Source: Bacillota bacterium (GTDB lineage: Bacteria > Patescibacteriota > Minisyncoccia > Phycocordibacterales > Phycocordibacteraceae). From it: a stretch of 64,000 nt of DNA. Location of the stretch: contig JBLNCF010000012.1 of assembly GCA_050260455.1 (NCBI GenBank), positions 58,236 through 122,235 of the forward strand, in the 5' to 3' direction. Below, one piece after another: positions 18,655 through 48,117 of this stretch; the first letter of the stretch is position 1, and the number at the start of each line of letters is the position of its first letter. A program made the translations under genes and the position numbers. The notes beneath the pieces were generated by a model. It was not told where the DNA came from. It saw only the letters and a program-made list of their open reading frames with translations, and made no database searches.

Positions 18655-19995
18655 TCACGAGACCTCGCCTAGATACGGAAGAGAGAAGAGCTTTTTCATG
18701 CCCCGGCCGGAGAAGCGTTGTGGAGCGTTTTTCCGGAGCGACGCCGATGTGCCGTACTCGACATGCTGTTCAGCGTCAGTTTTCTCCACGATCGCTTGCA
18801 TAGAAGAGGCGAGAAAGATCGTATGCCGTCCGAACCGTTCCGAGAGTTCATCCACCTTCTCGAAGATCCGAGCCTTACCTGCGATTTTTGCTGGATCCGT
18901 AAAAAGATCAGGCTGGCGCTCTGCGTGCTCCGCAAGATGTGAAAGGGTTACCCCGGTGGTGCGATATGTTTCGCCCGGCCGCACGAGATCTTTCATGTGG
19001 CGCTCGATGACCGGCAGAATATCAGAGGGAACATTCGTGGGTCGTTCGAGGGTAAGTTCGCACACGCGGTATCGGAATGTTTCTTGGGTTTTCAGGAAGA
19101 ATGAAATACGTCTCGCAGACAATTCAAACCGTCGCGCTTTGGCACAGGCACCCTCGACATTCTTCGATAGTTGCGCGAAGAGAAACACGGGATCTTGCGA
19201 AGCGGGACGGAAAGTACGTGTTTTCTGAATGGACTGGTAGGTCTCCTTGGGATCGGTAACCAACTCATGGACTAGAGTCCCGTTCAACTCCTTCCATATG
19301 TCATGGATAGGTGCGGTTACGCGTTCTTCCACCCACCCTGCGGGCTTCCTCGCGAAATCAAGCGCGCTACGGATACCGAGCGTATTCAAGTAGCGCGCGG
19401 TATTCGGCCCAATACCCCAAATCTTATCGACGGACGTACTTGCCAGGTATCGATCCTTCTCGGACAGCGGGATGGCGGTGAAGCCGTTTGGCTTTCTATA
19501 CTTCGAGCCGACCTTGGCGAGCACTTTCGTGGGTGCGAGACCGACACCGAAGGTGATGTTGAGTTCGCGGGTGAGATCCGCCTGGATGTCACGAGCGATG
19601 GCCTCGTAAGATTTATGGAATTTGCGACGCAGGCCGGTGAGCTCACCGAAGCATTCATCGATACCGTATTCCTCTACGATGGGCGTATAGCGGCGCATGA
19701 TTGCGTACATACGCTCCGAGTAGAGTCCGTAGGTCTCATAATCCGATTCGATAACCACGAGATCGGGACAGATGCGCTTTGCTTCCGCGAGCGACACACC
19801 ACGCTTCACGCCCAACGCTTTAGCTTCATACGTGGCGGCCGATACGATACCGCGTTCGGCACCGGTGGCTACCGGTTTTCCTTTTAGGGCAGGGTTCTTT
19901 GCTACCTCGCAGGCCGCGAAGAAAGAGTCACCATCCACGTGGATGATGGCGCGTGGGTAATAGTAATTCTTTTCCCATCCGACCTCTGTCGGCAT
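18655..19995 (-). CDS. dinB: Y-family DNA polymerase (DinB/UmuC-like)
   Basis: N-terminal IIHVDGDSFFAACE catalytic motif; 446 aa; 4 nt downstream of lexA on the same strand. Confidence 0.85.
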   Translation of the reverse strand: MPTEVGWEKNYYYPRAIIHVDGDSFFAACEVAKNPALKGKPVATGAERGIVSAATYEAKALGVKRGVSLAEAKRICPDLVVIESDYETYGLYSERMYAIMRRYTPIVEEYGIDECFGELTGLRRKFHKSYEAIARDIQADLTRELNITFGVGLAPTKVLAKVGSKYRKPNGFTAIPLSEKDRYLASTSVDKIWGIGPNTARYLNTLGIRSALDFARKPAGWVEERVTAPIHDIWKELNGTLVHELVTDPKETYQSIQKTRTFRPASQDPVFLFAQLSKNVEGACAKARRFELSARRISFFLKTQETFRYRVCELTLERPTNVPSDILPVIERHMKDLVRPGETYRTTGVTLSHLAEHAERQPDLFTDPAKIAGKARIFEKVDELSERFGRHTIFLASSMQAIVEKTDAEQHVEYGTSASLRKNAPQRFSGRGMKKLFSLPYLGEVS

Positions 19996-19999
19996 AGCA

Positions 20000-20566
20000 T
20001 TAGTACTTGCGAACGACGCCCGTCACTACCGCCTCGATATTGAGCGCACCTTTCGGATAGATGGGCTTGAACGCTGCGTTGGCGGGGTCGAGATAGAATC
20101 GATCGCCGCTCTTGCGAAGGTACTTCATCGTGTACTCGCCATCGACCGACGCGATGACTATCTGACCAGGCTTATACGATGCACGACGTTCGACGATAAC
20201 CAGATCGCCCGGGCAGATGCCGGCATCAATCATGCTCTCGCCCTTTACCTTGAGAATGTAGGAGTTCTCCTTGTTTGGAGTGAGGAACTCATCGAAATCC
20301 ATGACATCGAGGAGTTCTTCTTCAGCGGGGGAGGGGAAACCTGCCTCGACCAGACCGAGGAGAGGGACACCTACCAGGGTGCGACCGGGTGCGAGACGTC
20401 CTTGCTTGTCCTTCTTTACGACCCCGTCCTCGACCAGCTTATTGATGAGCTTATAGACGGAGTTCTTTGAAGAAAGACCTGTCGCTTCCATGATCTCCTT
20501 GTAGCCGGGCATGCGCTTATGCCGTTCATAAAAACCGACAATCTTCCGTTTGTAGCTGTCGTACAT
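20000..20566 (-). CDS. lexA: LexA repressor (S24 peptidase)
   Basis: Winged HTH (GYKEIMEATGLSSKNSVYKLINKL), Ala-Gly cleavage-site-like VEAG, Ser/Lys dyad region (GESM...MKY); start moved to MYDSYKR because the track's GTG start at 20596 lies inside the SOS box. Confidence 0.85.
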   Translation of the reverse strand: MYDSYKRKIVGFYERHKRMPGYKEIMEATGLSSKNSVYKLINKLVEDGVVKKDKQGRLAPGRTLVGVPLLGLVEAGFPSPAEEELLDVMDFDEFLTPNKENSYILKVKGESMIDAGICPGDLVIVERRASYKPGQIVIASVDGEYTMKYLRKSGDRFYLDPANAAFKPIYPKGALNIEAVVTGVVRKY

Positions 20567-20573
20567 GCTTACT

Positions 20574-20604
20574 ATGATAGGTGAACTAGGGTTCACCAGT
20601 CAAG
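20574..20604 (-). promoter_or_regulatory. putative lexA promoter TTGACT-N18/19-TATCAT with the SOS box in the spacer
   Basis: Minus strand reads TTGACTGGTGAACCCTAGTTCACCTATCATAGTAAGCATG; -10 ends about 7 nt before the ATG, implying a leaderless or near-leaderless transcript. Confidence 0.45.
20581..20596 (-). promoter_or_regulatory. SOS (Cheo-type LexA) box GTGAAC-TAGG-GTTCAC
   Basis: Perfect GAAC-N4-GTTC palindrome about 17 nt upstream of the lexA ATG. Confidence 0.7.
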
Positions 20605-20616
20605 TGGTGCGGTGGA

Positions 20617-21243
20617 TTATGTCTCGGTAGCGGGGGAGGAGCGTTGCTTCTTTTTGCGTGCACGCAGATATGCCGATAGAACATATCCGCCCACGCCGAT
20701 GGCGAGCGCGACACCGATACCGAGAGAGGTGAGCTTTGCATCCTGCTTCCATGCCGCACCGATGAAATAGCCTGCAGCTAGATAGGCAGCAGTGCACAGG
20801 GCATTTCCCAACAGATCGAAGAAGGCGAATTCGACGACGCGCATTTGTGAGAGACCGGCAATAGCATTTACGGGTGTGCTTGCGACACCGATAAGGCGGG
20901 AAAGAAAAACGGTTGCGCGCGGGTGGCGCTTGGCGTAGCCCTCGATGCGATTTGCGAATCGGTTACGCTCAACGAATCGGCGATACCCAGCCTTCTTGCC
21001 GAGCCGCCGTGATATCTCAAACACAATAATGTCGCTCATGGTGCTTGCAGCAGCGGCCGTGAAGAACGATATGAAAAAACTTAAATAGTGCGCACGCGCG
21101 AGTGCTCCTACGCCGATGAGAATGATGCCGATCGGTAGGAAGCTTGTGACTTCGCTTGCTGCGACCAAAAGAAAAAGCGCGCTGTATCCGTACGCGAGAA
21201 TGTACCCAATATCGGTCGAAGGCGTGGGGAGTGCCATCGACAC
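20617..21243 (-). CDS. DedA/TVP38-family membrane protein
   Basis: DedA-like TM arrangement with conserved G and R residues (RLIGVASTPVNAIAGLSQM). Confidence 0.7.
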   Translation of the reverse strand: MSMALPTPSTDIGYILAYGYSALFLLVAASEVTSFLPIGIILIGVGALARAHYLSFFISFFTAAAASTMSDIIVFEISRRLGKKAGYRRFVERNRFANRIEGYAKRHPRATVFLSRLIGVASTPVNAIAGLSQMRVVEFAFFDLLGNALCTAAYLAAGYFIGAAWKQDAKLTSLGIGVALAIGVGGYVLSAYLRARKKKQRSSPATET

Positions 21244-21277
21244 CAGTATACGTCAGCAGGATGAGTCCCGAGTGAGG

Positions 21278-24200
21278 CTATTCCTCCGAACTTCGTGCGA
21301 AACGGGCAAGCACCTCCTTCCCGGGCCAGCGGTAGTAGAGAACGGGAATGAGGACGAGTGTGAGAAGGAGTGAAAAGGCGAGACCGAACATGATGGCGAC
21401 GGCAAGCGGTCCCCAGAATGGCGACACCAGAGCGAGCGGCACCATACCGATCACGGTCACAACGGTGGTGAGGAGGATGGGGCGTAGGCGGGTGGATGCT
21501 GCCTCGATCACCACGTTCTCAAGGGACATGGTCTCGTCTTCACGATGGATACGAGCGATCGAGTCCATGAGAATGATGGCGTGGTTGATAATCACGCCCG
21601 CAAGCGCGATGACACCGAGCATGGAGGTGAGGGAGAGCGGCTGTCCGACGAGCGTAAGACCGGCAAATACACCCACCAACGAAAGCGGAATGATGGAGAG
21701 GAGGTAGAAGGATTGACGGAATGAATTGAACTCAAGCACCAGGATGGAAAGCATAAGCGCTGCACCTGCGATGAGTGCAATAAAGAGTTCAGTGAAGGAT
21801 TTGCCAATGTCTTCTGACGCACCGCCGAGCTTCATGGTCACCCCCGTGCCGAGCATCGCGGGAGTAAAACGTTTCTCAAAGGCACGGGTCGCTTCAAGTG
21901 CGTTGGTCTTCGGACCCACATCTGCGGTTACGGTCGCGATGCGATGTCCGGCTTCGTGATGAATGGCCGTCTGTGCCGCTGCGTAATGGACGTCAGCGAT
22001 AGTGGAAAGGGGTACGGGACCCTTGGCGCCTGGAATGGTGAGTGCACGCACCGCATCAATATTGGCATGGGTGGTCTCGGAAGGATCAGCGTACGTTGGA
22101 TTGAGATCAAGCTTCACCCGCACCTCGATATCATTCGTACCGGTGCGAATAGAGGTCGCCTTGGCACTATAGAGGGCGGTGCGAAGCGTATCAGCAACCA
22201 CTGCAGGTGAGACTCCCATCTCGGCTGCTTTTGCACTATCAAGTGCGACCACAAACTCTGCGCTGGCATCCTTGGTGCTGGAATCGATGTTCACGACACC
22301 GGGGATATCGGAGAGAGTGTGTGCGGCACGATCTGCAGTGGCCGAAAGCGCCCCCAGGTCATCACCCGAGAAGGTGATGGTGATAGGGGAGGAGGAAGGA
22401 GGACCACCTTGCGGCTCACCGACGGTGATGGAAGCGGATGTAATGCCGGAAAGCTCCTTACGCAGTTCGGTCACGAACTTCGCGCTCGGGATATGGTGTT
22501 TCGGAAGATTCACCGTGATATTCGCGACATTGCTTCCCGAAGAGGGACCGGTAAGACCGCCGCCGGCAAAGGAACTACCAGAACCAACCTCGGTCACGAA
22601 CGAAGCGACGTGCTTGTCTCCATACAACACTTCTTCAATCTGACGTACTGCAAGATCGGTTTCAGAGAGTTCTGTACCCTGCGGTTTCTCAATCTCTACG
22701 TATACGTAATCTGAATCAGCACCGGGGAAGAAAATGGATTTAAGAAGTCCGGTGGAGGGAAGTGCAAGAGCAATGAAGAAAAGCGCGATCATCGCTGCAA
22801 TGAAGCGGTTTTGACTTTTGGTGTCATGGAGAAGCTTACGCAAGAACTGCTGATACCACGCACGAGCTTTCACGTTGTACTCTTCCTGGCGCGCGGCGAG
22901 CGGGTTGTATGAATCTTTCACGAAGAAGACAGAAAGAATCGGTACGAATCCAAGTGCGACGAAGATGGACGCCAGGAGAACGAAGATAACAGTGAATGGA
23001 ATCGCGGCGAGGAATTTACCGACGATACCCGACAGGAAGAAGAGTGGGATGAACACCACGATGGTAGTGAAGGTACCGGCGATGAGTGGCCAGGCGTATT
23101 CGCGAATAGCAGCGATTGCTGCTTCATGGCGATCACCATATTTATGCAGACGGGTATGAAAGGCTTCGACCACCACGATACCCGAGTCGACCAAAATACC
23201 GATAGCAAGGATGAGCGAGAACAACGAAACATTATTGAGGGTGTTGCCTGAAGCCATGAGGCCGATGAACGCAACCAAGAAAGAAAGAGGAACCGAAGCG
23301 GCTGCTACCAGTGACTCGCGCCATCCGAGGGTGACCAAGAGTACGAGCATGACGAGGATAACCGTCTCGATACCGGCGCGTCCCAGTTCAGTGAGACTCT
23401 TATTCACCTCTTCCGCTCCGTTATAGGAGATAACGGTTTCAGTTCCGGCGAGCATGCCGGACTGCAGGTCCGTAAGTTTCTTCTCGATAGCATGCCCGGT
23501 CTCGACAATGTTGCCTCCGCGGCTTTTAAAGATAGTGAGCGTGAGGGAAGGTTCTGCCGGTTTGCCTCCTACCGACACGCGCGAGAACGAAGTGGGGTCC
23601 TCAAGGCCATCGACGACATCGGCCACGTCGCGCACGTGGAGAGTCGAACCACCGGGACCTGCAATAGCAACGTTCGCGACGGCCTCGGTTGAAGGTACGC
23701 CCGAATCAAAACGCACCGCGTAGCGGATACCGTCCACGGTGATGGAGCCAGCCGGGGAGGCGACGCCAGCAGCGCGAATTGCGTTCGTAATATCGGAAAG
23801 TGAGAGGCCATACTCGCGCAAGCGATCCTCTCTGGCGATGACCTGCACCTGGCGCGCACGCACGCCAGAGACAGTCACTTTGGAAACACCGGGCACACGC
23901 TTCAGCTCTTCGGAAAGGGAGTCACCGAGCGCCGTCAATTCAGCAGGCGCCAAATCGCCGGAAACCGATACCACCATGATGGGCGAGTCGGCAAAGTTCA
24001 CGTCGGATACTACCGGTGCCTGCGCTTCAGCGGGAAGTTCGGGACGTACCTTATCGACTGCATCCTTCAAGAGCTGGATCGACTTATCAATATCTGCAGA
24101 GGAATCAAACTCAACTGATACTACGGAAATACCCTCGCCAGATGTAGAAGTCACCTTCGAAACATGTTCGACGGGGAGCACACCGCTCTCGATTTTGTCG

Positions 24201-24394
24201 GTGATGAGGCGCTCGACATCCGAAGAACTGGCACCCGGCAGCGTGGTTGAGACCACGCCAAGCGGAATGGAGATATCTGGCGTTGCCTCCTTTGGTATGG
24301 CGGTAAGTGCGTAAAGACCGCCTGCCAGAAGCACCAGCATCAGAAACACCGTGAAGTGGTGCTTGCGTATGAAAAAGGTCCAGAACCTGGTCAT
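21278..24394 (-). CDS. RND-family efflux transporter (AcrB/HAE-like)
   Basis: 1038 aa, 12-TM architecture with two large extracytoplasmic loops. Confidence 0.9.
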   Translation of the reverse strand: MTRFWTFFIRKHHFTVFLMLVLLAGGLYALTAIPKEATPDISIPLGVVSTTLPGASSSDVERLITDKIESGVLPVEHVSKVTSTSGEGISVVSVEFDSSADIDKSIQLLKDAVDKVRPELPAEAQAPVVSDVNFADSPIMVVSVSGDLAPAELTALGDSLSEELKRVPGVSKVTVSGVRARQVQVIAREDRLREYGLSLSDITNAIRAAGVASPAGSITVDGIRYAVRFDSGVPSTEAVANVAIAGPGGSTLHVRDVADVVDGLEDPTSFSRVSVGGKPAEPSLTLTIFKSRGGNIVETGHAIEKKLTDLQSGMLAGTETVISYNGAEEVNKSLTELGRAGIETVILVMLVLLVTLGWRESLVAAASVPLSFLVAFIGLMASGNTLNNVSLFSLILAIGILVDSGIVVVEAFHTRLHKYGDRHEAAIAAIREYAWPLIAGTFTTIVVFIPLFFLSGIVGKFLAAIPFTVIFVLLASIFVALGFVPILSVFFVKDSYNPLAARQEEYNVKARAWYQQFLRKLLHDTKSQNRFIAAMIALFFIALALPSTGLLKSIFFPGADSDYVYVEIEKPQGTELSETDLAVRQIEEVLYGDKHVASFVTEVGSGSSFAGGGLTGPSSGSNVANITVNLPKHHIPSAKFVTELRKELSGITSASITVGEPQGGPPSSSPITITFSGDDLGALSATADRAAHTLSDIPGVVNIDSSTKDASAEFVVALDSAKAAEMGVSPAVVADTLRTALYSAKATSIRTGTNDIEVRVKLDLNPTYADPSETTHANIDAVRALTIPGAKGPVPLSTIADVHYAAAQTAIHHEAGHRIATVTADVGPKTNALEATRAFEKRFTPAMLGTGVTMKLGGASEDIGKSFTELFIALIAGAALMLSILVLEFNSFRQSFYLLSIIPLSLVGVFAGLTLVGQPLSLTSMLGVIALAGVIINHAIILMDSIARIHREDETMSLENVVIEAASTRLRPILLTTVVTVIGMVPLALVSPFWGPLAVAIMFGLAFSLLLTLVLIPVLYYRWPGKEVLARFARSSEE

Positions 24395-24396
24395 TG

Positions 24397-25938
24397 CTAT
24401 TTGGTCGCCTCGACGACGTTCACTTTCTGTCCTTCCGAGAGTCCGCGGGCGTCGGTGACGATACGTAGGTCACTAGGGAGGTCGGTAGTGATCTCGATGC
24501 GGTCACCATGCACATCGCCGATATCGACGGGGTGTGCAATCAAACGACCGTCTTCGCCCAGAGAGAACACCACGCGCGAGTTTGGCGTGAGTTTGAGTGC
24601 GGCAAGGGGAAGCATGAGAGGACCGCTTGCAGTCGAGGTCGCAACAGCTGCGCCCGGCAATGAAACGCGGACCGACTGACCGTTCACGAGCGTGGATGCA
24701 CCAGTAACGGCGATGTGGACTTCGATCTGCTTGGTGGTGGGATCGAGTGCGGGAGCAATGGAAGTGATGATGCCGGGGTACTGGTCTTCTATCATGACGT
24801 TCGTTCCCACAGAGAGATGAGAGCGGGTCTCCTCGGAAACATACGCAACGATTTCAAGCGCACCATTTTGTGCCACGGTTGCCACATGCGTATAGGCGGT
24901 TACGTAGTCGCCCACGTGAAGCGGAAGGAAGTTCACTTGGCCGGAGATCGGTGCACGGATGAGTGTTTTCTCGAGGTTTGCTTGTGCGGCACGCAAGGTG
25001 CCGAGTGCCGTTTTCACACTCGCGTCCGCACCCGCAGTCGCCGATGTTCCCTGGCTGCGGTACGTCTGCTTAGCAGCCGTGATGCTTGCCTGGACCGAAG
25101 CAATGTTTGTGCGTGCGGTAGCGAGCGCAGCGAGTTGGGTTGCGTTGGCGTCGGTGCCGTAACGGGTCGCGATGCTTGCGATATCAGTAACGAGCGCTGA
25201 TGCTTCACGGGTGATGCTGTCGGCTTCGGTAAGGAGTGTCTCACCATTTGCGGACGATGCGGTCGCAAGGTGCGAGCGCCACACATCCATATCCTTGCTT
25301 AGTGTCTGGCGCTTGGTGGAGAAATAGGTTGAACCGAATTCGCGTGGACTGATGAGGAACGTCGGACCGAACGCGCCCTGGCTACCATAAAAGGTGTCGA
25401 CGTAGGTCTTGAGCGTCGAGTCGAGTGAGTTATACGAAGAAGTATAGGTGTTAAGAGCGGATGCTCCGATGTCGCCGACAGAAATGCCCGAACGCGCAGC
25501 AACGGCTGCGTCGTAGGATCCTTCAGCTTGTAGTACGGCAGCACGTTGGCTTGCGTTATCAAGTTCCGCAAGCACGTAGCCAGCCGGAACGTTCTGGCCA
25601 AGTTTCGCGTGGATGGAACGGACGGTACCACCTGATTCGGCGAGAATGTTCGCTTCGGTAATGGAGCGAACCGATCCAATGACACCGACCGAAGAAGCGT
25701 TTCCTGAAAGTTCAGCGATGGGCGCGAGTGTTACGGAAGGGAGGGTCTGTACTGCTTCGGCGGAAGAACCCAACCGTATGAGAAATGATATGACGGCAAG
25801 GAGGAGAATGACGACCAGAACACCGATAAGTGTCTGCAGCCAGAGGGCGAGTGAGAGATATCGAGACCAAAGCCGCTTACCGAAGCGGCCGACAGGAGCA
25901 AAGCGTTCCAAAGGAAAAGCGAGTCGTGGTATACGCAT
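24397..25938 (-). CDS. efflux periplasmic adaptor / membrane fusion protein (HlyD family)
   Basis: N-terminal TM, coiled-coil and beta-barrel domains; 3 nt upstream of the RND gene. Confidence 0.8.
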   Translation of the reverse strand: MRIPRLAFPLERFAPVGRFGKRLWSRYLSLALWLQTLIGVLVVILLLAVISFLIRLGSSAEAVQTLPSVTLAPIAELSGNASSVGVIGSVRSITEANILAESGGTVRSIHAKLGQNVPAGYVLAELDNASQRAAVLQAEGSYDAAVAARSGISVGDIGASALNTYTSSYNSLDSTLKTYVDTFYGSQGAFGPTFLISPREFGSTYFSTKRQTLSKDMDVWRSHLATASSANGETLLTEADSITREASALVTDIASIATRYGTDANATQLAALATARTNIASVQASITAAKQTYRSQGTSATAGADASVKTALGTLRAAQANLEKTLIRAPISGQVNFLPLHVGDYVTAYTHVATVAQNGALEIVAYVSEETRSHLSVGTNVMIEDQYPGIITSIAPALDPTTKQIEVHIAVTGASTLVNGQSVRVSLPGAAVATSTASGPLMLPLAALKLTPNSRVVFSLGEDGRLIAHPVDIGDVHGDRIEITTDLPSDLRIVTDARGLSEGQKVNVVEATK

Positions 25939-27385: not shown

Positions 27386-29065
27386 ATGACCCAGGCCCAA
27401 GCGCTCGACATTCTCAAGACCGGCGCGAACGTGTTCCTCACGGGGGAGCCGGGAAGCGGCAAGACGCACACGCTTTCCGCATACATCGCCTGGCTTAAGT
27501 CTCATGGCATCGAACCATCGGTGACTGCATCTACGGGCATCGCCGCAACGCATGTGGGCGGCATGACTATCCATTCGTGGAGCGGGATCGGTATTCTTGA
27601 GCACCTCGATGCAGAAGATCTCGATCGCATCGCCTCGAAGGAGCACGTTGCGCGCCGCATTCAAAAAGCAAAGGTACTTATCATTGATGAGATCTCCATG
27701 CTCTCTGCAGGGGCGCTCTCGATGGTGGACGCGGTTGCTCGCGAGGTGCGTCGAGATACTCGCGCCTTCGGCGGTCTACAAGTAATCTTCTGCGGCGATT
27801 TCTTCCAGCTTCCGCCCGTCACGCGCGGTGGCACGCCAGCAGAGTTTGCGTTCATGTCTCCATCGTGGCGTTCGGCTACACCGCTCGTGTGTTATCTCAC
27901 GGAGCAGCATCGCCAGGAGGACGACACCTATCTCTCCATTCTCTCCGCTATACGCGATGGCAGTTTCGATCATACGCATGCGTCGGCCATTCTCTCGCGC
28001 GAATCGGATGGGGACGAGCTTGAGAGCGACACGCCGCGCCTCTTCACGCACAACGCGGACGTGGATCGCATCAACGATGAATGTCTTGCGCGGCTTCCCG
28101 GTTCTTCTCGTGCGTTCCGTATGGAAACCACCGGTCCTGATGTGCTTATCGAAGGATTGAAGCGGGGTTGTCTGTCGCCCGAGACACTGGAACTGAAAGT
28201 GGGCGCCGTTGTGATGTGTACCAAGAATCATCCGGCAGGCATGTACGTGAACGGTACGCTCGGAACCGTCACCGGTTTCGCACGCGGTTCAGGCGAACCG
28301 ATCATCGAAACCCGCGATGGTCGGGAGCTGTCGATGGTATCAACCGAGTGGGCTCTTGAAGAGAATGGCAAGGTGCGTGCAAAGATTGCACAGGTGCCGC
28401 TTCGACTTGCATGGGCCATTACGATACATAAGAGTCAGGGCATGAGCATGGATGCCGCGGCCATCGATCTGTCACGCTCGTTTGAGTTTGGACAGGGGTA
28501 CGTTGCACTCTCGCGCGTGAGATCACTGTCAGGTCTTGTGCTTCTCGGGTGGAGTGAACAAGCGACTTTGGTGCATCCAGAAGTTGCGCGCATGGATGAA
28601 CGTCTGCGCGAGGAATCCTATGCCGCAGAAGAGGCGTTCCAGACGTTGAGTGAAGATGGCGACCTCGCAATCATGCACCGCAATTTCATCATGGCGTCCG
28701 GGGGTACGCTCACGGAAGCTCCAGAAGGAGCGAAGTCGACCAAGCGTACGACGTATGACGAGACACTCGCATTCATTGAAGACGGCATGCCGCTTATCGA
28801 TATCGCCAAAGAACGCAAACTCACGATCGGTACCATTGCCGATCATGCGGAAAAACTCATTGCAGGTGGACGCATTGATGCGGCGACCTTACTTGCACTC
28901 ATCCCGGCCCGACTGGTCGCCGGACTCCCTGATATCCACGAGACCTTCGAAGAAGTCGGTACGGAGAAACTTGCTCCGGCGCATGCAAAATTGCACGGCC
29001 GATATACCTACGATGAGTTGAAACTGGCCCGCATCCTGTACGCTCGGGAGGCTGGGGTAAAATAA
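27386..29065 (+). CDS. PIF1/RecD-like ATP-dependent DNA helicase
   Basis: Walker A GEPGSGKTH, DEIS Walker B, PIF1-like motifs; C-terminal helicase HTH-like region. Confidence 0.8.
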   Translation: MTQAQALDILKTGANVFLTGEPGSGKTHTLSAYIAWLKSHGIEPSVTASTGIAATHVGGMTIHSWSGIGILEHLDAEDLDRIASKEHVARRIQKAKVLIIDEISMLSAGALSMVDAVAREVRRDTRAFGGLQVIFCGDFFQLPPVTRGGTPAEFAFMSPSWRSATPLVCYLTEQHRQEDDTYLSILSAIRDGSFDHTHASAILSRESDGDELESDTPRLFTHNADVDRINDECLARLPGSSRAFRMETTGPDVLIEGLKRGCLSPETLELKVGAVVMCTKNHPAGMYVNGTLGTVTGFARGSGEPIIETRDGRELSMVSTEWALEENGKVRAKIAQVPLRLAWAITIHKSQGMSMDAAAIDLSRSFEFGQGYVALSRVRSLSGLVLLGWSEQATLVHPEVARMDERLREESYAAEEAFQTLSEDGDLAIMHRNFIMASGGTLTEAPEGAKSTKRTTYDETLAFIEDGMPLIDIAKERKLTIGTIADHAEKLIAGGRIDAATLLALIPARLVAGLPDIHETFEEVGTEKLAPAHAKLHGRYTYDELKLARILYAREAGVK

Positions 29066-43491: not shown

Positions 43492-44037
43492 TCAGACACC
43501 CGAGCGGTTTGCGAGCAGTTCAGCAAATTCCTTCTGCACCTTCTGTAGTTTGGGAGCGATGATGACCTGGCAATAGCCCTGCTGCGAGTTTCGTGCGTAA
43601 TAGTCCTTGTGGTACTCCTCGGCAGGATAGAAGGTCGCATGCTCCTCCACGGTCGTTACGATAGGATCGCCTTCGCTCGAAGATCCCTGCAATTCCTGGA
43701 TGAAAGCCTGTGCCTCTTTCGTTTGTTCTGCTGTAGTAGGGAAGACGGCGGAGCGGTATTGCGTGCCAATATCGTTCCCTTGCCGGTTTAACTGTGTTGC
43801 ATCATGGCTACCGAAGAAAACGGTCATGAGCTCTCGGTAGGAGATCTGTGATGGATCGAATTCGATACGGATGACTTCTGCGTGTCCCGTTGTCCCCGTG
43901 CACACCTGCTCGTAGGTGGGATTGCTGGTATGTCCGCCTGCATAGCCAGGTTCTACCTTGGTCACACCTTTCAGCATCTTAAATACCGCTTCGGTGCACC
44001 AGAAGCATCCGCCTCCGAATATCGCTGTTTCGGTCAT
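43492..44037 (-). CDS. msrA: peptide methionine sulfoxide reductase MsrA
   Basis: GGGCFWC active site. Confidence 0.9.
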   Translation of the reverse strand: MTETAIFGGGCFWCTEAVFKMLKGVTKVEPGYAGGHTSNPTYEQVCTGTTGHAEVIRIEFDPSQISYRELMTVFFGSHDATQLNRQGNDIGTQYRSAVFPTTAEQTKEAQAFIQELQGSSSEGDPIVTTVEEHATFYPAEEYHKDYYARNSQQGYCQVIIAPKLQKVQKEFAELLANRSGV

Positions 44038-44124: not shown

Positions 44125-44271
44125 TCAGTCTTCCTCTTCTTCTAGCGCCGCGTCGGCTTCTTCGTCGGCTTGACGTTGGGTGTCAGCGGCATCGCGCAGC
44201 GCCTCCGCTTTCTCGGAGCCGCGTTCTTCAGCGGCGTCAGCTTGTTCTTCGAGTTCTCGTGGTGTAGGCAT
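44125..44271 (-). CDS. candidate 48-aa highly acidic micro-protein
   Basis: MPTPRELEEQADAAEERGSEKAEALRDAADTQRQADEEADAALEEEED; GGGAGA RBS 6 nt upstream; followed by a terminator; low complexity. Confidence 0.3.
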   Translation of the reverse strand: MPTPRELEEQADAAEERGSEKAEALRDAADTQRQADEEADAALEEEED

Positions 44272-44408: not shown

Positions 44409-44897
44409 ATGGACCCCATCGAACTCATCACCGAAGACCACCGCCGCATTCAAGCACTCCTCGACGAGTACGAAGCGTACGGCGAGGACGCATACATTCA
44501 GAAACAGGAACTTGTCGATTCCATTATCGATGAGCTTGAAGCACATACGGAGATGGAAGAGACCATTGCGTATCCCGCGTTCCGCGAAGCGTTCGATACC
44601 GAGGGAGATAAGAAGATAGAAGAGGCGTATGCAGAGCATGACGTTGCCAAGAATCTCATAGAAGAATTACGTGGCCTGGATCCCCAGGATCCGCAATTTG
44701 ATGCGAAGCTGGTGGTGCTTCGGGAAAGTGTCATGCACCACATGGAGGAAGAGGAAAGCAGCCTCCTCCCTTCAGCAGAGACATCGATGAGTGGGGAAGA
44801 TATGGCGCGAATCGGAGAGGAAATGAAGGCATTCAAGGATGCGCGCGATGATGCGGCGCTCGATGCTTTGAGCGACCTTGACGACGACGCGTTATAG
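44409..44897 (+). CDS. hemerythrin HHE cation-binding domain protein
   Basis: H/E-rich four-helix pattern (DHRRI...H..EE...YP...EH...HH.EEE); start MDPIEL preferred over track start 44283. Confidence 0.7.
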   Translation: MDPIELITEDHRRIQALLDEYEAYGEDAYIQKQELVDSIIDELEAHTEMEETIAYPAFREAFDTEGDKKIEEAYAEHDVAKNLIEELRGLDPQDPQFDAKLVVLRESVMHHMEEEESSLLPSAETSMSGEDMARIGEEMKAFKDARDDAALDALSDLDDDAL

Positions 44898-44996
44898 ACG
44901 CTATCCACCGCACGTGCTCGACGGGGCACTGGGGCACGTGCCTATACTCGAAATAGAGGTGCGCTCCTGCACACTCGGTAGCAAAGGGGTTTTGAC

Positions 44997-45503
44997 ATGG
45001 GCTGGACAGAAGAACGGATAGCCTTGCTCAAGAAGATGTGGCTTGAAGGACTCTCGGCGAGCCAGATCGCGAAGCAGTTGGGTGGGGTGACCAGGAACGC
45101 GGTGATCGGGAAGGTGCATCGGCTGGGCCTTTCTGGACGCGCTACACCGTCGCAGCCACGAGCAGCTGCATACAAGGTCAAGGTGCCCCGCGCGCCACGA
45201 CCGGTTACGACGAAGCCTGCGCGTCGGGAACCGGCTGAAGCGGTGCATCGGCCGGCGGCACGGGTACAGATATACCGCGAAGAATCTCCTGGCTCGGCGA
45301 CGATACTCACGCTCGGGGCACATATGTGCAAATGGCCGATCGGGGATCCCGTCTCCGACAGCTTCACCTTCTGCGGCAAGCGGGTGGGGGATGGCAACCC
45401 GTACTGTGTGGATCACGGACGGATCGCCTACCAACCCATGCAGGCAGGCCAGAAGAAATCATCCGGGGATGATCTCGTCCGTTCTCTGCGCCGGTACGCG
45501 TAA
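44997..45503 (+). CDS. gcrA: GcrA cell-cycle regulator homolog
   Basis: N-terminal MGWTEERIALLKKMWLEGLSASQIAKQLGGVTRNAVIGKVHRLGLSGR and C-terminal CKWPIGDP...FTFCG...PYCVDH...AYQP correspond closely to alphaproteobacterial GcrA as I recall it. Confidence 0.8.
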   Translation: MGWTEERIALLKKMWLEGLSASQIAKQLGGVTRNAVIGKVHRLGLSGRATPSQPRAAAYKVKVPRAPRPVTTKPARREPAEAVHRPAARVQIYREESPGSATILTLGAHMCKWPIGDPVSDSFTFCGKRVGDGNPYCVDHGRIAYQPMQAGQKKSSGDDLVRSLRRYA

Positions 45504-45521
45504 AACTCGGCTGGTAAGTCA

Positions 45522-45555
45522 GGGCGCCTTCGGCACATATGTGCTCGAGGCGCCC
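45522..45555. terminator. bidirectional terminator between gcrA and msrB (GGGCGCC...GGCGCCC enclosing palindrome GCACATATGTGC)
   Basis: Convergent gene ends 57 nt apart; compound hairpin. Confidence 0.5.
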
Positions 45556-45559
45556 GCAC

Positions 45560-45958
45560 TTATTCCTTATCGAAAGCAAGACAGACGGAATTAATACAGT
45601 ATCGTTTGCCGCCTGCATCCTTGGGTCCATCATCAAATACATGACCCAGATGACTGCCGCAGTGCTTGCAGAATACTTCCGTGCGTTGCATGCCGTGGCT
45701 GTCGTCCACTCTCGTACCTACATTCTCTGCGACCGCGGGATCAGTGAAGGATGGCCAGCCGGTCCCTGAATCAAATTTTTGTGCGCTGGTGAAGAGGACA
45801 TTTCCACATACTTTGCAGCGGTACACACCCTCCTCATGATTATCGACATATTCGCCGGTGAAGGGTGCTTCGGTGGCCCCTTCGCGAAGCACCGCATATT
45901 CTTCAGTTGTGAGCCGCTCGCGTAATTCTTCTTCGGTTGGCATCGGTTTTTCATTCAT
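45560..45958 (-). CDS. msrB: peptide methionine sulfoxide reductase MsrB
   Basis: Two CxxC pairs (CKVCGNV, CKHCGSH) and GTGWPSF...HLGHVF. Confidence 0.9.
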   Translation of the reverse strand: MNEKPMPTEEELRERLTTEEYAVLREGATEAPFTGEYVDNHEEGVYRCKVCGNVLFTSAQKFDSGTGWPSFTDPAVAENVGTRVDDSHGMQRTEVFCKHCGSHLGHVFDDGPKDAGGKRYCINSVCLAFDKE

Positions 45959-46009
45959 GCGGAAAGTATATACCCAGGCTCGGTGAAGGCTCCGTGTTAG
46001 AATCGGGCC

Positions 46010-46462
46010 ATGAAGCGCTCGACGCTCATTTCTCTTATCATTGCGCTCTCATTCCTCGGCGTGGCAGATGCCTGGTATCTCGCGGAGACCGCGCTTACCC
46101 ATACGGCTCTGACCTGCAGTATAGCAGGGCTCGATGGCTGCAATGTCGTTGCGCAAAGCCCCTATTCGCACGTTTTCGGCATTCCGCTTGGGGTATACGG
46201 TGTCGTCTTCTACGCCCTCACTATCATTATCGCAGCCCTCTCGGCGCGGCTGGTTCGTACCTGGCTCGATCGCATTCTGGCGCTGATTGTTTTTGTCGGA
46301 GCGCTCGCCTCCCTCTATTTCTTGTACGTCCAGTTCGTACTTATTCAGGCGCTGTGCGTGTACTGCCTTGCGTCTGCAGTCATCTCGCTTGCGCTCACGG
46401 TCGTAGTTATTCGTCTGGTACGAGGGCAGAAAACGAGCGACCCTGCGGCTACTGTCTCTTAA
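46010..46462 (+). CDS. vitamin K epoxide reductase (VKOR) family protein
   Basis: TM-embedded CxxC (CVYC), loop Cys pair (TCSIAGLDGC), 4-5 TMs. Confidence 0.7.
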   Translation: MKRSTLISLIIALSFLGVADAWYLAETALTHTALTCSIAGLDGCNVVAQSPYSHVFGIPLGVYGVVFYALTIIIAALSARLVRTWLDRILALIVFVGALASLYFLYVQFVLIQALCVYCLASAVISLALTVVVIRLVRGQKTSDPAATVS

Positions 46463-46468
46463 ACTCTC

Positions 46469-47641
46469 GTGTTATTATCAGGCCATATGAAGCGGTACCT
46501 AGCTATCGCAACTCTGCTTCTCCTTGCGCCGTCGTTCGCGTACGCATCCACATTCACCTCAAGCCGCACCGTCGTTCTTTCCGACGAGACGACCAACGCA
46601 TACCTGACTGGTACAGATATTACGGTCGTAGCGCCGCTTGCGGGCGACCTGCTTGCGGCCGGAGGCACGGTGACGGCGAATAGTCCGATAGCCGGAGACG
46701 CGATGCTCGCGGGCGGTACTATCGATATCGAGAAACCGGTGGCAGGCGATGTGCGTGCGGGTGGCGGTACCGTCACCGTGAACGCTCCTGTGGGCGGTGA
46801 CCTGGTTGCAGGAGGAGGAACGGTTACCGTTTCAGGAACCGCCAAGGAGATGCGTATTGCGGGCGGCACGGTACGCATAACTAATGGTGCCACCGGTCCA
46901 GTCATTATCTACGGCGCCGATATTTCTCTTGCGGGTGATTTTGCAGGCGATGTCACCATCGAGGCTTCCGACCGAATCACCATTGCGGAGGGCACTCATA
47001 TCCATGGTGCGCTGCGGTATAACGCACCGCAGGAGATCACACTTCCGGTGGGTGCTGTTGCTGATGGGGGCGTCTCCTATATCGGTTCGTCATCGTTCCT
47101 GCCGACCTCGCAGGAAGCACAGACGTTCGCGGTAGCCGGCGCGACCATCTTCTTTGTGGTACATCTCCTTGCCGTACTCATCCTTGCCGGTCTCCTTGCC
47201 GGTCTTTTCCCGGTATTCACCGAGCGGGTAGCCGAGCGCACACTTGCTGATCATTCTCCCGGTCGGTTTGTCCTTCTTGCTTTGCTTGGATTCGGTATAC
47301 TCGTAGCCGCACCGGTGCTCATCCTCTTCCTCCTCTTCTCGTTCGTCGGTATTGGCGTAGCACTCGTACTGGCTGCGCTCTATGCACTCTTTATCATGCT
47401 TGCCTATATCTATGCCGGTATCCTTGCTGGTGCCGCCCTCGCTCGGGGACTTATGAAGCGGCACATCATTACGTGGAAGGAGGCGGTGCTCGGCATGCTC
47501 GTCCTCTACCTTATCGGAGTCATTCCAGTCATTGGCATGCTCGTTAAGTTTGTGCTCATGCTTGCTGCGGGCGGAGCTATTGTTTCCATAGCGTACGTAT
47601 TCGCGTTCCGCCGGACCTCTGCAGAGCCGCTCTTCGAGTGA
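46469..47641 (+). CDS. signal-peptide protein with Gly-rich beta-helix-like repeats (bactofilin/DUF4097-like) and C-terminal polytopic membrane domain
   Basis: Reiterated about 19-aa units (AGD..AGGTVTVN.P); then about 5 TMs. Confidence 0.5.
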   Translation: MLLSGHMKRYLAIATLLLLAPSFAYASTFTSSRTVVLSDETTNAYLTGTDITVVAPLAGDLLAAGGTVTANSPIAGDAMLAGGTIDIEKPVAGDVRAGGGTVTVNAPVGGDLVAGGGTVTVSGTAKEMRIAGGTVRITNGATGPVIIYGADISLAGDFAGDVTIEASDRITIAEGTHIHGALRYNAPQEITLPVGAVADGGVSYIGSSSFLPTSQEAQTFAVAGATIFFVVHLLAVLILAGLLAGLFPVFTERVAERTLADHSPGRFVLLALLGFGILVAAPVLILFLLFSFVGIGVALVLAALYALFIMLAYIYAGILAGAALARGLMKRHIITWKEAVLGMLVLYLIGVIPVIGMLVKFVLMLAAGGAIVSIAYVFAFRRTSAEPLFE

Positions 47642-48117
47642 TCATGGGGTTCCCGCGTGTAGGTACTGCCGCACCCGACTTCACACTCCTGGATCAGGAC
47701 GGGAAAGAACACCGTCTTTCTGCCTACCGGGGGAAATGGGTGCTTATCTATTTCTATCCTAAGGACGATACTCCGGGCTGTACTAAGGAAGCGTGTGCCA
47801 TTCGTGACGCCGATCCTGACTTCAGCACACTCGATGCGGTCGTGCTCGGTATTTCCGCTGATAGCGTAAAGTCGCACAAGAAATTTGCGGAGAAGTACGA
47901 ACTTACATTCCCGCTCCTTGCAGACGAAGACAAAACGGTCATCAATGCATACGGCGTGTGGGGCCTGAAAAAATTCATGGGCCGAGAGTATGAGGGCATT
48001 CTTCGTACTTCATTCCTGGTTGATCCGAACGGGAAGATCGCCTACGTCTATGAAAAGGTGAAGCCGGAGCAGCATGCTGCGGAAGTAATCGCTGATCTGA
48101 AGGAATTTGTCGCATGA
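47638..48117 (+). CDS. bcp: thiol peroxidase Bcp/PrxQ (peroxiredoxin)
   Basis: YFYPKDDTPGCTKEAC active site. Confidence 0.85.
   Translation: MIMGFPRVGTAAPDFTLLDQDGKEHRLSAYRGKWVLIYFYPKDDTPGCTKEACAIRDADPDFSTLDAVVLGISADSVKSHKKFAEKYELTFPLLADEDKTVINAYGVWGLKKFMGREYEGILRTSFLVDPNGKIAYVYEKVKPEQHAAEVIADLKEFVA

Follow-up and report, generated by a model that had tools for sequence, protein, structure and literature searches.

A GcrA-family sigma factor cofactor gene of Caulobacteraceae type in Paceibacteria

In Caulobacter the cell cycle is driven by GcrA, a cofactor of RNA polymerase that is regarded as a hallmark of alphaproteobacterial cell-cycle control. A gene for such a protein occupies positions 44997..45503 (+ strand) of a 64,000-nucleotide stretch of DNA (the window; contig JBLNCF010000012.1 of assembly GCA_050260455.1, positions 58,236 to 122,235), for which Pfam annotation of the whole window returns a typical small-genome repertoire of the candidate phyla radiation (CPR) and nothing alphaproteobacterial. 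Where does this gene come from, did it enter once or several times, and what is it kept for? The answer that we favour, and hold to be fairly probable, is that the gene would encode a functional GcrA of Caulobacteraceae origin, repeatedly captured by CPR bacteria and kept for its binding to the sigma factor. A literature search found no paper linking GcrA with Patescibacteria or the candidate phyla radiation. The NCBI pipeline already names such proteins 'GcrA family cell cycle regulator' in Parcubacteria metagenome-assembled genomes (MAGs); the annotation exists, and the phenomenon appears to be undescribed.

Domains and functional residues of the encoded protein

The open reading frame (ORF) at 44997..45503 begins with ATG and encodes 168 residues, a full-length GcrA-family sigma70 cofactor. 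The Pfam family PF07750 (GcrA) covers the product over profile positions 1–153 of 155 with a score of 188 bits (cutoff 26.9), and comparison with the solved Caulobacter crescentus GcrA (PDB 7YE1_G) gives E = 1e-64 across residues 1–167. Against the NCBIfam equivalog model NF050816 ('cell cycle sigma 70 cofactor GcrA'), the protein scores 258.2 bits, under the cutoff of 280. Judged by these scores, it is a GcrA family member that falls slightly below the curated ortholog threshold. A preliminary description of the locus had called the product a GcrA homolog, and the Pfam and 7YE1_G matches bear this out, the protein being a genuine and near-orthodox GcrA. The same description had singled out the N-terminal block and a C-terminal block, CKWPIGDP...FTFCG...PYC.DH...AYQP, as GcrA-like; both are present and invariant among the aligned orthologs. 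Specifically, when the protein is aligned to ten relatives, no position differs in the first 50 residues or in the C-terminal block HMCKWPIGDP..D.F.FCG...YC..H...AYQP, and variation is confined to a Pro/Ala/Arg-rich linker.

The functional residues defined by Wu et al. 2018 (PMC5887438) were mapped onto the window GcrA and the other CPR copies. Caulobacter GcrA has been solved in holoenzyme complexes (PDB 7YE1/7YE2), as the sigma-interacting domain with sigma70 region 2 (5YIX) and as the DNA-binding domain with DNA containing N6-methyladenine (m6A; 5YIV/5YIW/5Z7I). The N-terminal DNA-binding domain (residues 1–45; 44997..45131, + strand) has all 14 contact residues identical to those of Caulobacter. 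In particular, the base- and m6A-contacting residues R33, N34, I37, G38, H41 and R42 are identical (6/6), and so are the residues that contact the backbone, M1, W3, W15, S20, A21, S22, T32 and K39 (8/8). The Pro/Ala/Arg-rich variable linker (residues 46–97; 45132..45287, + strand) carries the donor-clade signature ...VHRPAARVQIYREE; it is like that of the P0002–P0005 Caulobacteraceae clade (...SHQPAPRVQVYREE) and unlike the linkers of other CPR copies.

The C-terminal sigma70-interacting domain (45288..45431, + strand) contains a CCCH zinc finger, C111-X14-C126-X10-C137-X2-H140, in which all four ligands are kept and the second spacer is one residue longer than in Caulobacter, as in most orthologs. 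Eight of the ten hydrophobic sigma-contact residues are identical to those of Caulobacter and the other two are conservative, while the essential contacts W120, F130, F132, Y142 and Y151 (Caulobacter numbering) are all identical. Residue G129 of Caulobacter, likewise counted among the essential contacts, is S in the window GcrA, and S is also found at this position in natural alphaproteobacterial orthologs. The C-terminal basic tail (…QKKSSGDDLVRSLRRYA; 45444..45500, + strand) aligns with the Caulobacter basic patch, residues 157–173. As far as sequence can tell, the window GcrA would work like Caulobacter GcrA.

Host, donor and the occupation of one slot

The host of the window is a member of the Parcubacteria/Paceibacteria (CPR, Patescibacteria), and the NCBI label 'Bacillota bacterium' (MGE5541156.1) is wrong. 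A 14-gene syntenic block, with genes for a DEAD helicase, DsbA-like protein, msrA, gcrA, msrB, VKOR, p390, Bcp, Nth, a MutY-like protein, MFS, RNase J and SBP, is common to the window and Parcubacteria bacterium C7867-008 (GCA_001189215.1), with protein identities of 48–79%. Within it, VKOR, p390 (a 390-residue membrane protein without a Pfam family) and Bcp/AhpC-TSA form a CPR-specific syntenic block (46010..48117, + strand), which we used to retrieve related genomes; a p390 scan of one genome per GTDB species returned eight loci, all of them in Patescibacteria MAGs. All named close relatives of the window GroEL (77–89% identity) are Parcubacteria, Patescibacteria, Paceibacterota or Kaiserbacteria. 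The host is therefore not a member of the Bacillota, on the combined evidence of the C7867-008 synteny, the p390 loci, the GroEL relatives and the Pfam repertoire. The preliminary description had recognized the surroundings as non-alphaproteobacterial, which stands, but had missed their CPR/Parcubacteria identity.

To judge from its relatives and composition, the window gcrA is horizontally acquired from Caulobacteraceae-type Alphaproteobacteria. The closest proteins are 77–79% identical to it overall and 83–84% identical in the two folded domains. Their genes lie on contigs of 67–68% GC, with ABC2 permease, argD, argF and hslO upstream and xseA and DUF2093 downstream, and members of their 90% clusters are named Caulobacteraceae; the ABC2/argD/argF, gcrA, xseA context is present in L002, L004, L005, L014, L015, L176 and L180. 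The window gcrA has 62.1% GC, against 54.1 ± 3.1% for the window genes, and its GC content at third codon positions (GC3) is 68.6%, against 58.9 ± 6.4%. Horizontal acquisition had been proposed from the letters alone, and the relatives at 77–79% identity in an alphaproteobacterial context support it; the accompanying remark that local GC is a few points higher proved to be an understatement. Donor-type genes have a GC3 of ~0.90 and CPR gcrA copies one of 0.69–0.80, the total GC of CPR loci being 48–62%. At fourfold-degenerate sites the window gcrA and the nearest alphaproteobacterial genes are ~40% identical; synonymous sites are thus saturated, so that the transfer, though real, is not a recent one. 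Nucleotide homology to alphaproteobacterial loci begins and ends within 3 nt of the coding sequence (CDS), and no segment inside the window gcrA has unusually high nucleotide identity to any alphaproteobacterial gene that would indicate a mosaic.

Some further sequences deserve mention here. A contig of another MAG from the same study (GCA_050260915.1, 'Parcubacteria group bacterium'; contig JBLNCT010000038.1, L176) is 44 kb long with 67% GC and carries fabF-acpP-fabG-fabD, rpsF-rpsR-rplI and gcrA-xseA, with a gcrA of P0002 type; it is a mis-binned Caulobacteraceae contig, which shows donor-type bacteria to be present in the sample series that yielded the CPR organism. P0128, which bears a 'Parcubacteria' label and is >90% identical to Caulobacteraceae GcrA, was considered as a very recent transfer and rejected, as it comes from a mis-binned alphaproteobacterial-type contig. 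P0154, a match to the divergent copy of L121, was likewise rejected as a CPR copy, being alphaproteobacterial; this protein (L180, 5001-5468, + strand) lies in an alphaproteobacterial context and is without the IGKVHRLGLSGR recognition helix, either as a natural deletion variant or through an assembly error.

Mis-binning in the same study, together with the Bacillota label on the window's own MAG, raises the question of whether the gene itself is an alphaproteobacterial sequence misjoined to a CPR contig. We find such an assembly or binning artefact next to incredible. The gene lies inside a 64-kb contig of CPR synteny, no alphaproteobacterial gene is more than 79% identical to it, its GC3 is intermediate, and eight more loci, from studies unrelated to one another, have the gene in the same setting. 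Furthermore, the hemerythrin-gcrA-msrB junctions recur in a Logan assembly made independently from run SRR24035587 (L001), and because they are reproduced there, the arrangement is not an assembly chimera.

Entry on a phage is a second route to consider, since GcrA-like genes are carried by phiCbK-type Caulobacter phages, and indeed 32 records of cultured phages and at least 80 contigs of IMG/VR contain one. Such a gene might have been delivered by a phage or prophage of CPR bacteria; the preliminary description had pointed to phage-borne GcrA-like genes. However, phage proteins are at most 38% (cultured) or 60% (IMG/VR) identical to the window GcrA, against 77–79% for chromosomal Caulobacteraceae proteins, Pfam identifies no integrase, capsid or other phage gene in the window, and the borders of the slot are housekeeping genes that are conserved where gcrA is missing. 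With phage proteins so distant and no phage or mobile-element genes nearby, the phage route is therefore unsupported, and we consider it extremely improbable.

gcrA is found at the same slot in nine CPR loci: the window, L007, L010, L011, L100, L101, L121, L148 and L178. L007 and L010 come from close relatives (p390 73–74% identical to that of the window), L011 is C7867-008 (p390 51%), L100, L101, L121 and L148 are metagenome loci fetched via msrB, and L178/L179 is a further such locus. The left border of the slot is hemerythrin or msrA and the right border is convergent msrB; in the window these are a hemerythrin-domain gene (44409..44897, + strand; Pfam PF01814) and msrB (SelR; 45560..45958, − strand; Pfam PF01641), and msrB adjoins gcrA in every CPR locus that carries gcrA. 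In L006 and L009 the slot is empty, hemerythrin directly abutting msrB, and gcrA is missing also in L008, L012, L013 and ~30 further syntenic metagenome loci, so that it is present in 4 of 9 genomes and in ~4 of 35 syntenic metagenome loci. Given this patchy presence at one site, gcrA counts as accessory in the Paceibacteria clade concerned. The frame is intact in 7 of the 9 CPR copies; L100 (4477-4967, − strand) is frameshifted in the linker and L101 (1529-2031, − strand) inside the DNA-binding domain, which could be real decay or metagenome sequencing error.

Although the slot is shared, the CPR copies of GcrA are not one another's closest relatives. The preliminary description had set horizontal acquisition against homologs inherited within the host lineage, and the outcome is mixed: at least nine CPR loci share the slot, but their copies form no clade. 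Linkers vary freely among alphaproteobacteria, and we used them to sort the CPR copies. The window linker is of the type of the P0002–P0005 Caulobacteraceae clade (…H[RQ]PA[AP]RVQ[IV]YREE), while those of C7867, L101 and L148 are of the type of the P0032/P0094/P0098 clade (PSKP…APRRIAEP…RY[VMI]DE), the C7867 linker being 88% identical to that of P0032 and 47% identical to that of the window. The linkers of L007 and P0064 have sixteen consecutive residues in common, AAPSQPARPAYKPPRP. Monophyly of all CPR copies was recovered in 0 of 100 bootstrap replicates, and the CPR-only pair of L121 and P0153 in 100 of 100. C7867 forms a clade with the P0032 group in 86 of 100 replicates (nearest neighbour in 97–100%), and L007 with P0064 in 67–82 of 100 (nearest neighbour in 90–94%). 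The window copy finds its nearest neighbour in the P0002 group in 60–89% of replicates, and in none of them does the neighbour belong to either of the other two groups. Nearest-neighbour quartet sums also favoured separate origins and were set aside; the choice of neighbours was biased, and we therefore relied on the linker signatures and bootstraps instead.

From these signatures and trees, we conclude that one slot has come to hold alleles of at least three alphaproteobacterial types, besides an old lineage internal to CPR. Because the allele types at this slot differ, we infer repeated capture or overwriting over a single inherited event, and acquisition of gcrA was probably recurrent. After an initial insertion, the resident gene would have been replaced by homologous recombination within the conserved coding ends, and the gene would have spread among CPR genomes via the conserved msr flanks. 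In the window, L007 and L010, the sequences are homologous without a break from the hemerythrin gene across the intergenic stretch and for ~130 nt into gcrA; homology is lost at the gcrA linker and returns in the C-terminal domain.

Several observations weigh against recurrent capture and are the basis of a different history, in which the ancestor of the Paceibacteria clade acquired gcrA once, long ago, and vertical inheritance with many losses and unequal rates followed, the alphaproteobacterial affinities being a tree artefact. The insertion site is identical in all nine loci, and this fixed site together with the shared upstream block (contiguous flank homology, with a conserved 12-nt block, TGCGCTCCTGCA, in the window, L007 and L010) fits a single ancestral insertion at least as simply. 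The rare residues T71, K73, S97 and I103 are common to the window and C7867 copies, whose GcrA identity of 67% is inside the 48–79% range of neighbouring orthologs, and window+X pairs come together in 60–70% of random quartets. The strict neighbour-joining clade bootstrap for the donor clade of the window copy is only 4 of 100, a weak resolution that is due to the shortness of the protein (126 alignable domain columns), and long CPR branches placed on slowly evolving alphaproteobacterial sequences can mimic non-monophyly. We nevertheless judge a single ancient acquisition rather unlikely. It has to accommodate the linker signatures that L007 and C7867 share with P0064 and P0032, the nearest-neighbour bootstraps of 90–100% that place these two copies with different alphaproteobacterial groups, and the failure of CPR monophyly in every replicate. 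Moreover, the GC3 of every copy is 10–25 points over the host level, which is hard to square with a very old resident gene.

Methylation, selection and proposed role

In the GcrA/CcrM module, GcrA has as its partner CcrM, an N6-adenine methyltransferase for GANTC, and the preliminary description had remarked on the lack of CcrM nearby. This proved correct for the 64-kb window: no DNA methyltransferase domain is found by Pfam in window ORFs of at least 95 residues, and the motif IV signature (D/N/S)PP(Y/F/W) is in no long window ORF. Likewise, no DNA methyltransferase is found in 184 kb of related CPR loci. For GANTC, expected numbers were computed analytically with maximal-order Markov and mononucleotide models. 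The observed-to-expected ratio (O/E) is 0.96–0.99 in the window and 0.84–1.36 in CPR loci (0.84–1.08 in the first two gcrA-bearing sequences, 0.87–1.36 over all CPR loci), whereas in three alphaproteobacterial loci it is 0.13–0.52 (mononucleotide) and 0.34–0.75 (Markov). GANTC is thus not depleted in CPR, unlike in genomes with CcrM, depletion being an indirect proxy. YGAKTCG sites are not enriched, with 41 observed against ~35 expected and 3 of them intergenic. GANTC sites at the 5′ ends of msrA and msrB/VKOR were considered as a GcrA regulon; they occur in 3 of 4 gcrA-positive and 1 of 4 gcrA-negative loci, and the candidate was dropped as too few loci are involved.

The two halves of the protein have fared differently among CPR copies. 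All four zinc ligands and 7–9 of the 10 sigma-contact residues are kept in every CPR copy, and the ratio of nonsynonymous to synonymous substitution (dN/dS) between copies is 0.03–0.27 where estimable, synonymous sites being saturated, which indicates purifying selection. The DNA-reading helix is invariant in alphaproteobacteria, whereas the L148 copy carries I37L and H41S (4/6 base contacts), and in L121 and P0153 the helix is wholly remodelled (0/6 base contacts) next to 4/4 zinc ligands and 7–9/10 sigma contacts. The CPR-only sublineage comprising L121 (4110-4559, − strand) and L178 (5001-5447, + strand), a pair 57% identical to each other, has the helix GGG[VL]T..QIY..[RK]KLDLP, and dN/dS in the L121/P0153 sublineage is 0.19–0.26; the remodelled helix, too, is still under purifying selection there (dN/dS 0.26). 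A search with the L121 sequence for a larger CPR-specific subfamily returned only two or three members.

In Caulobacter, GcrA acts as a cofactor of the primary sigma factor with activity before recruitment (PMC4647560, PMC5887438), and on the sigma side its interface takes in regions 1.2 and 2.1 and, from the non-conserved region, K298 (PMC5887438). The sigma residues in contact with GcrA in Caulobacter are L128, L129, G133, A136, K139, R140, E142, A143, D146, T147, K298, T403, K407, E411, E418, Y461 and R462. By extension from the Caulobacter structures, the C-terminal CCCH zinc-finger domain of the CPR protein would dock on region 2 of the primary sigma factor, and the N-terminal domain would equip RNA polymerase with a further head that reads DNA at YGAKTCG-like sites, which it would bind best when they are N6-adenine methylated. 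Because the sigma domain is always kept, the DNA helix is sometimes altered or remodelled, and neither CcrM nor GANTC avoidance is detected, residue conservation suggests that the selected activity in CPR is sigma-factor binding, as in a general transcription cofactor. Reading of methylation would be optional in the CPR copies and is possibly dispensable or lost. The window copy has an orthodox reading head, and methylated sites would therefore still be readable by it if a methyltransferase is encoded elsewhere in the genome.

This functional account has its own difficulties. Within the genome of the window itself, the methyltransferase search covered 64 kb only. CPR sigma factors may have no counterpart of K298, which lies in the non-conserved region of the Caulobacter protein; neither the 64-kb window nor the fetched loci contain the host rpoD/sigA gene. 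Finally, with two frameshifted copies and most relatives without gcrA, selection is conditional at best.

The last of these points invites the reading that gcrA in CPR is a non-functional or nearly neutral passenger, picked up repeatedly with other host DNA by DNA-scavenging episymbionts and persisting awhile before decay. The patchy distribution, the frameshifts in L100 and L101, the incompletely ameliorated GC and the lack of a partner methyltransferase in the window and the 184 kb of CPR loci all fit with it. A passenger should not, however, be always the same gene in the same place, with intact frames, dN/dS of 0.03–0.27 despite saturated synonymous sites, functional residues kept in seven intact copies, and a CPR-only lineage (L121/P0153; 100/100 bootstrap) that is itself conserved. 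We regard this reading as quite improbable and prefer retention for sigma binding.

If the protein is kept for sigma binding, then the sigma-binding half of GcrA is maintainable under selection outside its native circuit, which favours describing GcrA as a general sigma cofactor and not purely as a reader of methylation. The CPR copies also constitute a natural variant series for separating the two activities, with an intact head in the window, a point-altered head in L148 and a remodelled head in L121/P0153. Recurring transfer from Caulobacteraceae to a single CPR clade is a hint that the two live in durable physical contact and offers a testable lead on the identity of the host; donor-type Caulobacteraceae are present in the same sample series as the CPR organism. 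Host identity is an old obstacle in CPR biology. On a much bolder conjecture, which we hold to be very doubtful, these Paceibacteria would be episymbionts of Caulobacteraceae that repeatedly capture a host-matched sigma70 cofactor, as an effector or mimic that is directed at host RNA polymerase or methylated host DNA and tunes the cell cycle of the host, or as a means of coupling transcription in the symbiont to signals from the host. If this were true, the host lineage of each CPR species could be read from the allele in its msrB slot.

Neighbouring elements and comparison with known systems

Upstream of gcrA, a −10-like hexamer, TATACT (44943..44948, + strand), is a putative promoter element, with CATAGT and CATACT at the aligned position in L007 and L010; no full sigma70 promoter came up there in a consensus scan. 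In the 5′ region of gcrA, the 12-nt block TGCGCTCCTGCA (44960..44971, + strand) is identical in the window, L007 and L010, is perfectly kept in these three CPR genomes despite saturated synonymous sites, and is absent from C7867 and from alphaproteobacterial loci. RNA folding of this region is not significant (z-scores 0.1–1.1), with a possible hairpin of 4–6 bp and a GCUCCU loop, and the block may be an operator or a translational element. A likely ribosome-binding site, AAAGGGG (44983..44989, + strand), lies 7 nt before the ATG and has purine-rich counterparts in L007 and L010. Between the convergent stop codons of gcrA and msrB, a strong hairpin (45513..45564; −33.1 kcal/mol, z = −5.6), which none of 200 shuffles matches in folding, is likely a bidirectional terminator.

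The preliminary description had placed the gene in a redox-stress cluster, and Pfam agrees, the neighbours being msrA, hemerythrin, msrB, VKOR, Bcp/AhpC-TSA and a DsbA-like gene. Specifically, msrA (PMSR; 43492..44037, − strand; Pfam PF01625) is part of the conserved CPR redox/repair block and is 78–84% identical among CPR loci. Directly upstream of it on the same strand is a small ORF for a very acidic, Glu/Asp/Ala-rich 48-residue product (44125-44271, − strand), and comparable acidic ORFs occupy the corresponding site in L008 and L010. An extended −10-like sequence, TGnTAGGAT, lies ~10 nt or less before the VKOR start in all CPR loci (window 45959-46009; L006–L012), a position which suggests that VKOR mRNA is leaderless or has a very short leader. 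The window version of this element is TGTTAGAATC, and it is overlapped by a GANTC site.

Elsewhere in the window, an Rfam scan identifies only two tRNAs. A pair of genes for LexA (20000-20596) and DinB/Pol IV (18655-19995) adjoins an RND efflux pump (AcrB-like, 21278-24394; HlyD-like adaptor, 24397-25938), the whole lying within 18655-25938, and such a pump is a slight surprise for CPR bacteria. At 27386-29065 lies a gene for a Pif1-family helicase that has a helix-turn-helix at its C-terminus. The site CTNAG is markedly scarce in the window, with 41 observed against 109 expected (Markov; O/E 0.38); its O/E is 0.44 in L010 and 0.61 in L006, and near 0.9 in L007, L011 and L013, a pattern suggesting that some of these Paceibacteria are under pressure from a restriction-modification system of the DdeI type (CTNAG).

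Comparison with known GcrA proteins places the window copy close to the chromosomal alphaproteobacterial type. Like the GcrA-like proteins of phiCbK-type phages and IMG/VR, it belongs to the same Pfam family (86–88% of the query covered), but it is only 31–38% identical to the cultured-phage proteins and at most 60% to those of IMG/VR, and it has no phage context. It resembles GcrA of uncultured Caulobacteraceae (P0002/P0003/P0005 clusters; HET9161646.1, HEX6867041.1) down to the linker features AAY..PRAPRPV..H.PA.RVQ.YREE, and differs from them in GC3 (~0.90 against 0.69 in the window) and in that homology ends at the borders of the CDS. With Caulobacter crescentus GcrA it shares the three-part architecture, a similar length (168 against 173 residues), identical DNA-contact and m6A-pocket residues, the CCCH zinc finger and the essential sigma contacts. 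It differs in its CPR host, in its context (hemerythrin, gcrA, msrB against ABC2/argD/argF, gcrA, xseA), in the second zinc-finger spacer (X10 against X9), in the substitutions G129 to S, S126 to V and V149 to I, and in that no CcrM is detected in the 64-kb window and GANTC is not depleted. The window gcrA is thus not a vertical alphaproteobacterial ortholog, because its neighbourhood differs, its score is under the equivalog cutoff and GANTC avoidance is absent.

A functional analogy between GcrA and the actinobacterial proteins RbpA and CarD has been drawn (PMC5887438). Like these, GcrA is a small protein that binds region 2 of the primary sigma factor or RNA polymerase before promoter recognition and stabilises initiation complexes. 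RbpA and CarD are unrelated to it in sequence and fold, and their likeness to CPR GcrA is one of analogy only. By that analogy, we propose that the activity retained in CPR GcrA would be an RbpA/CarD-like cofactor role.

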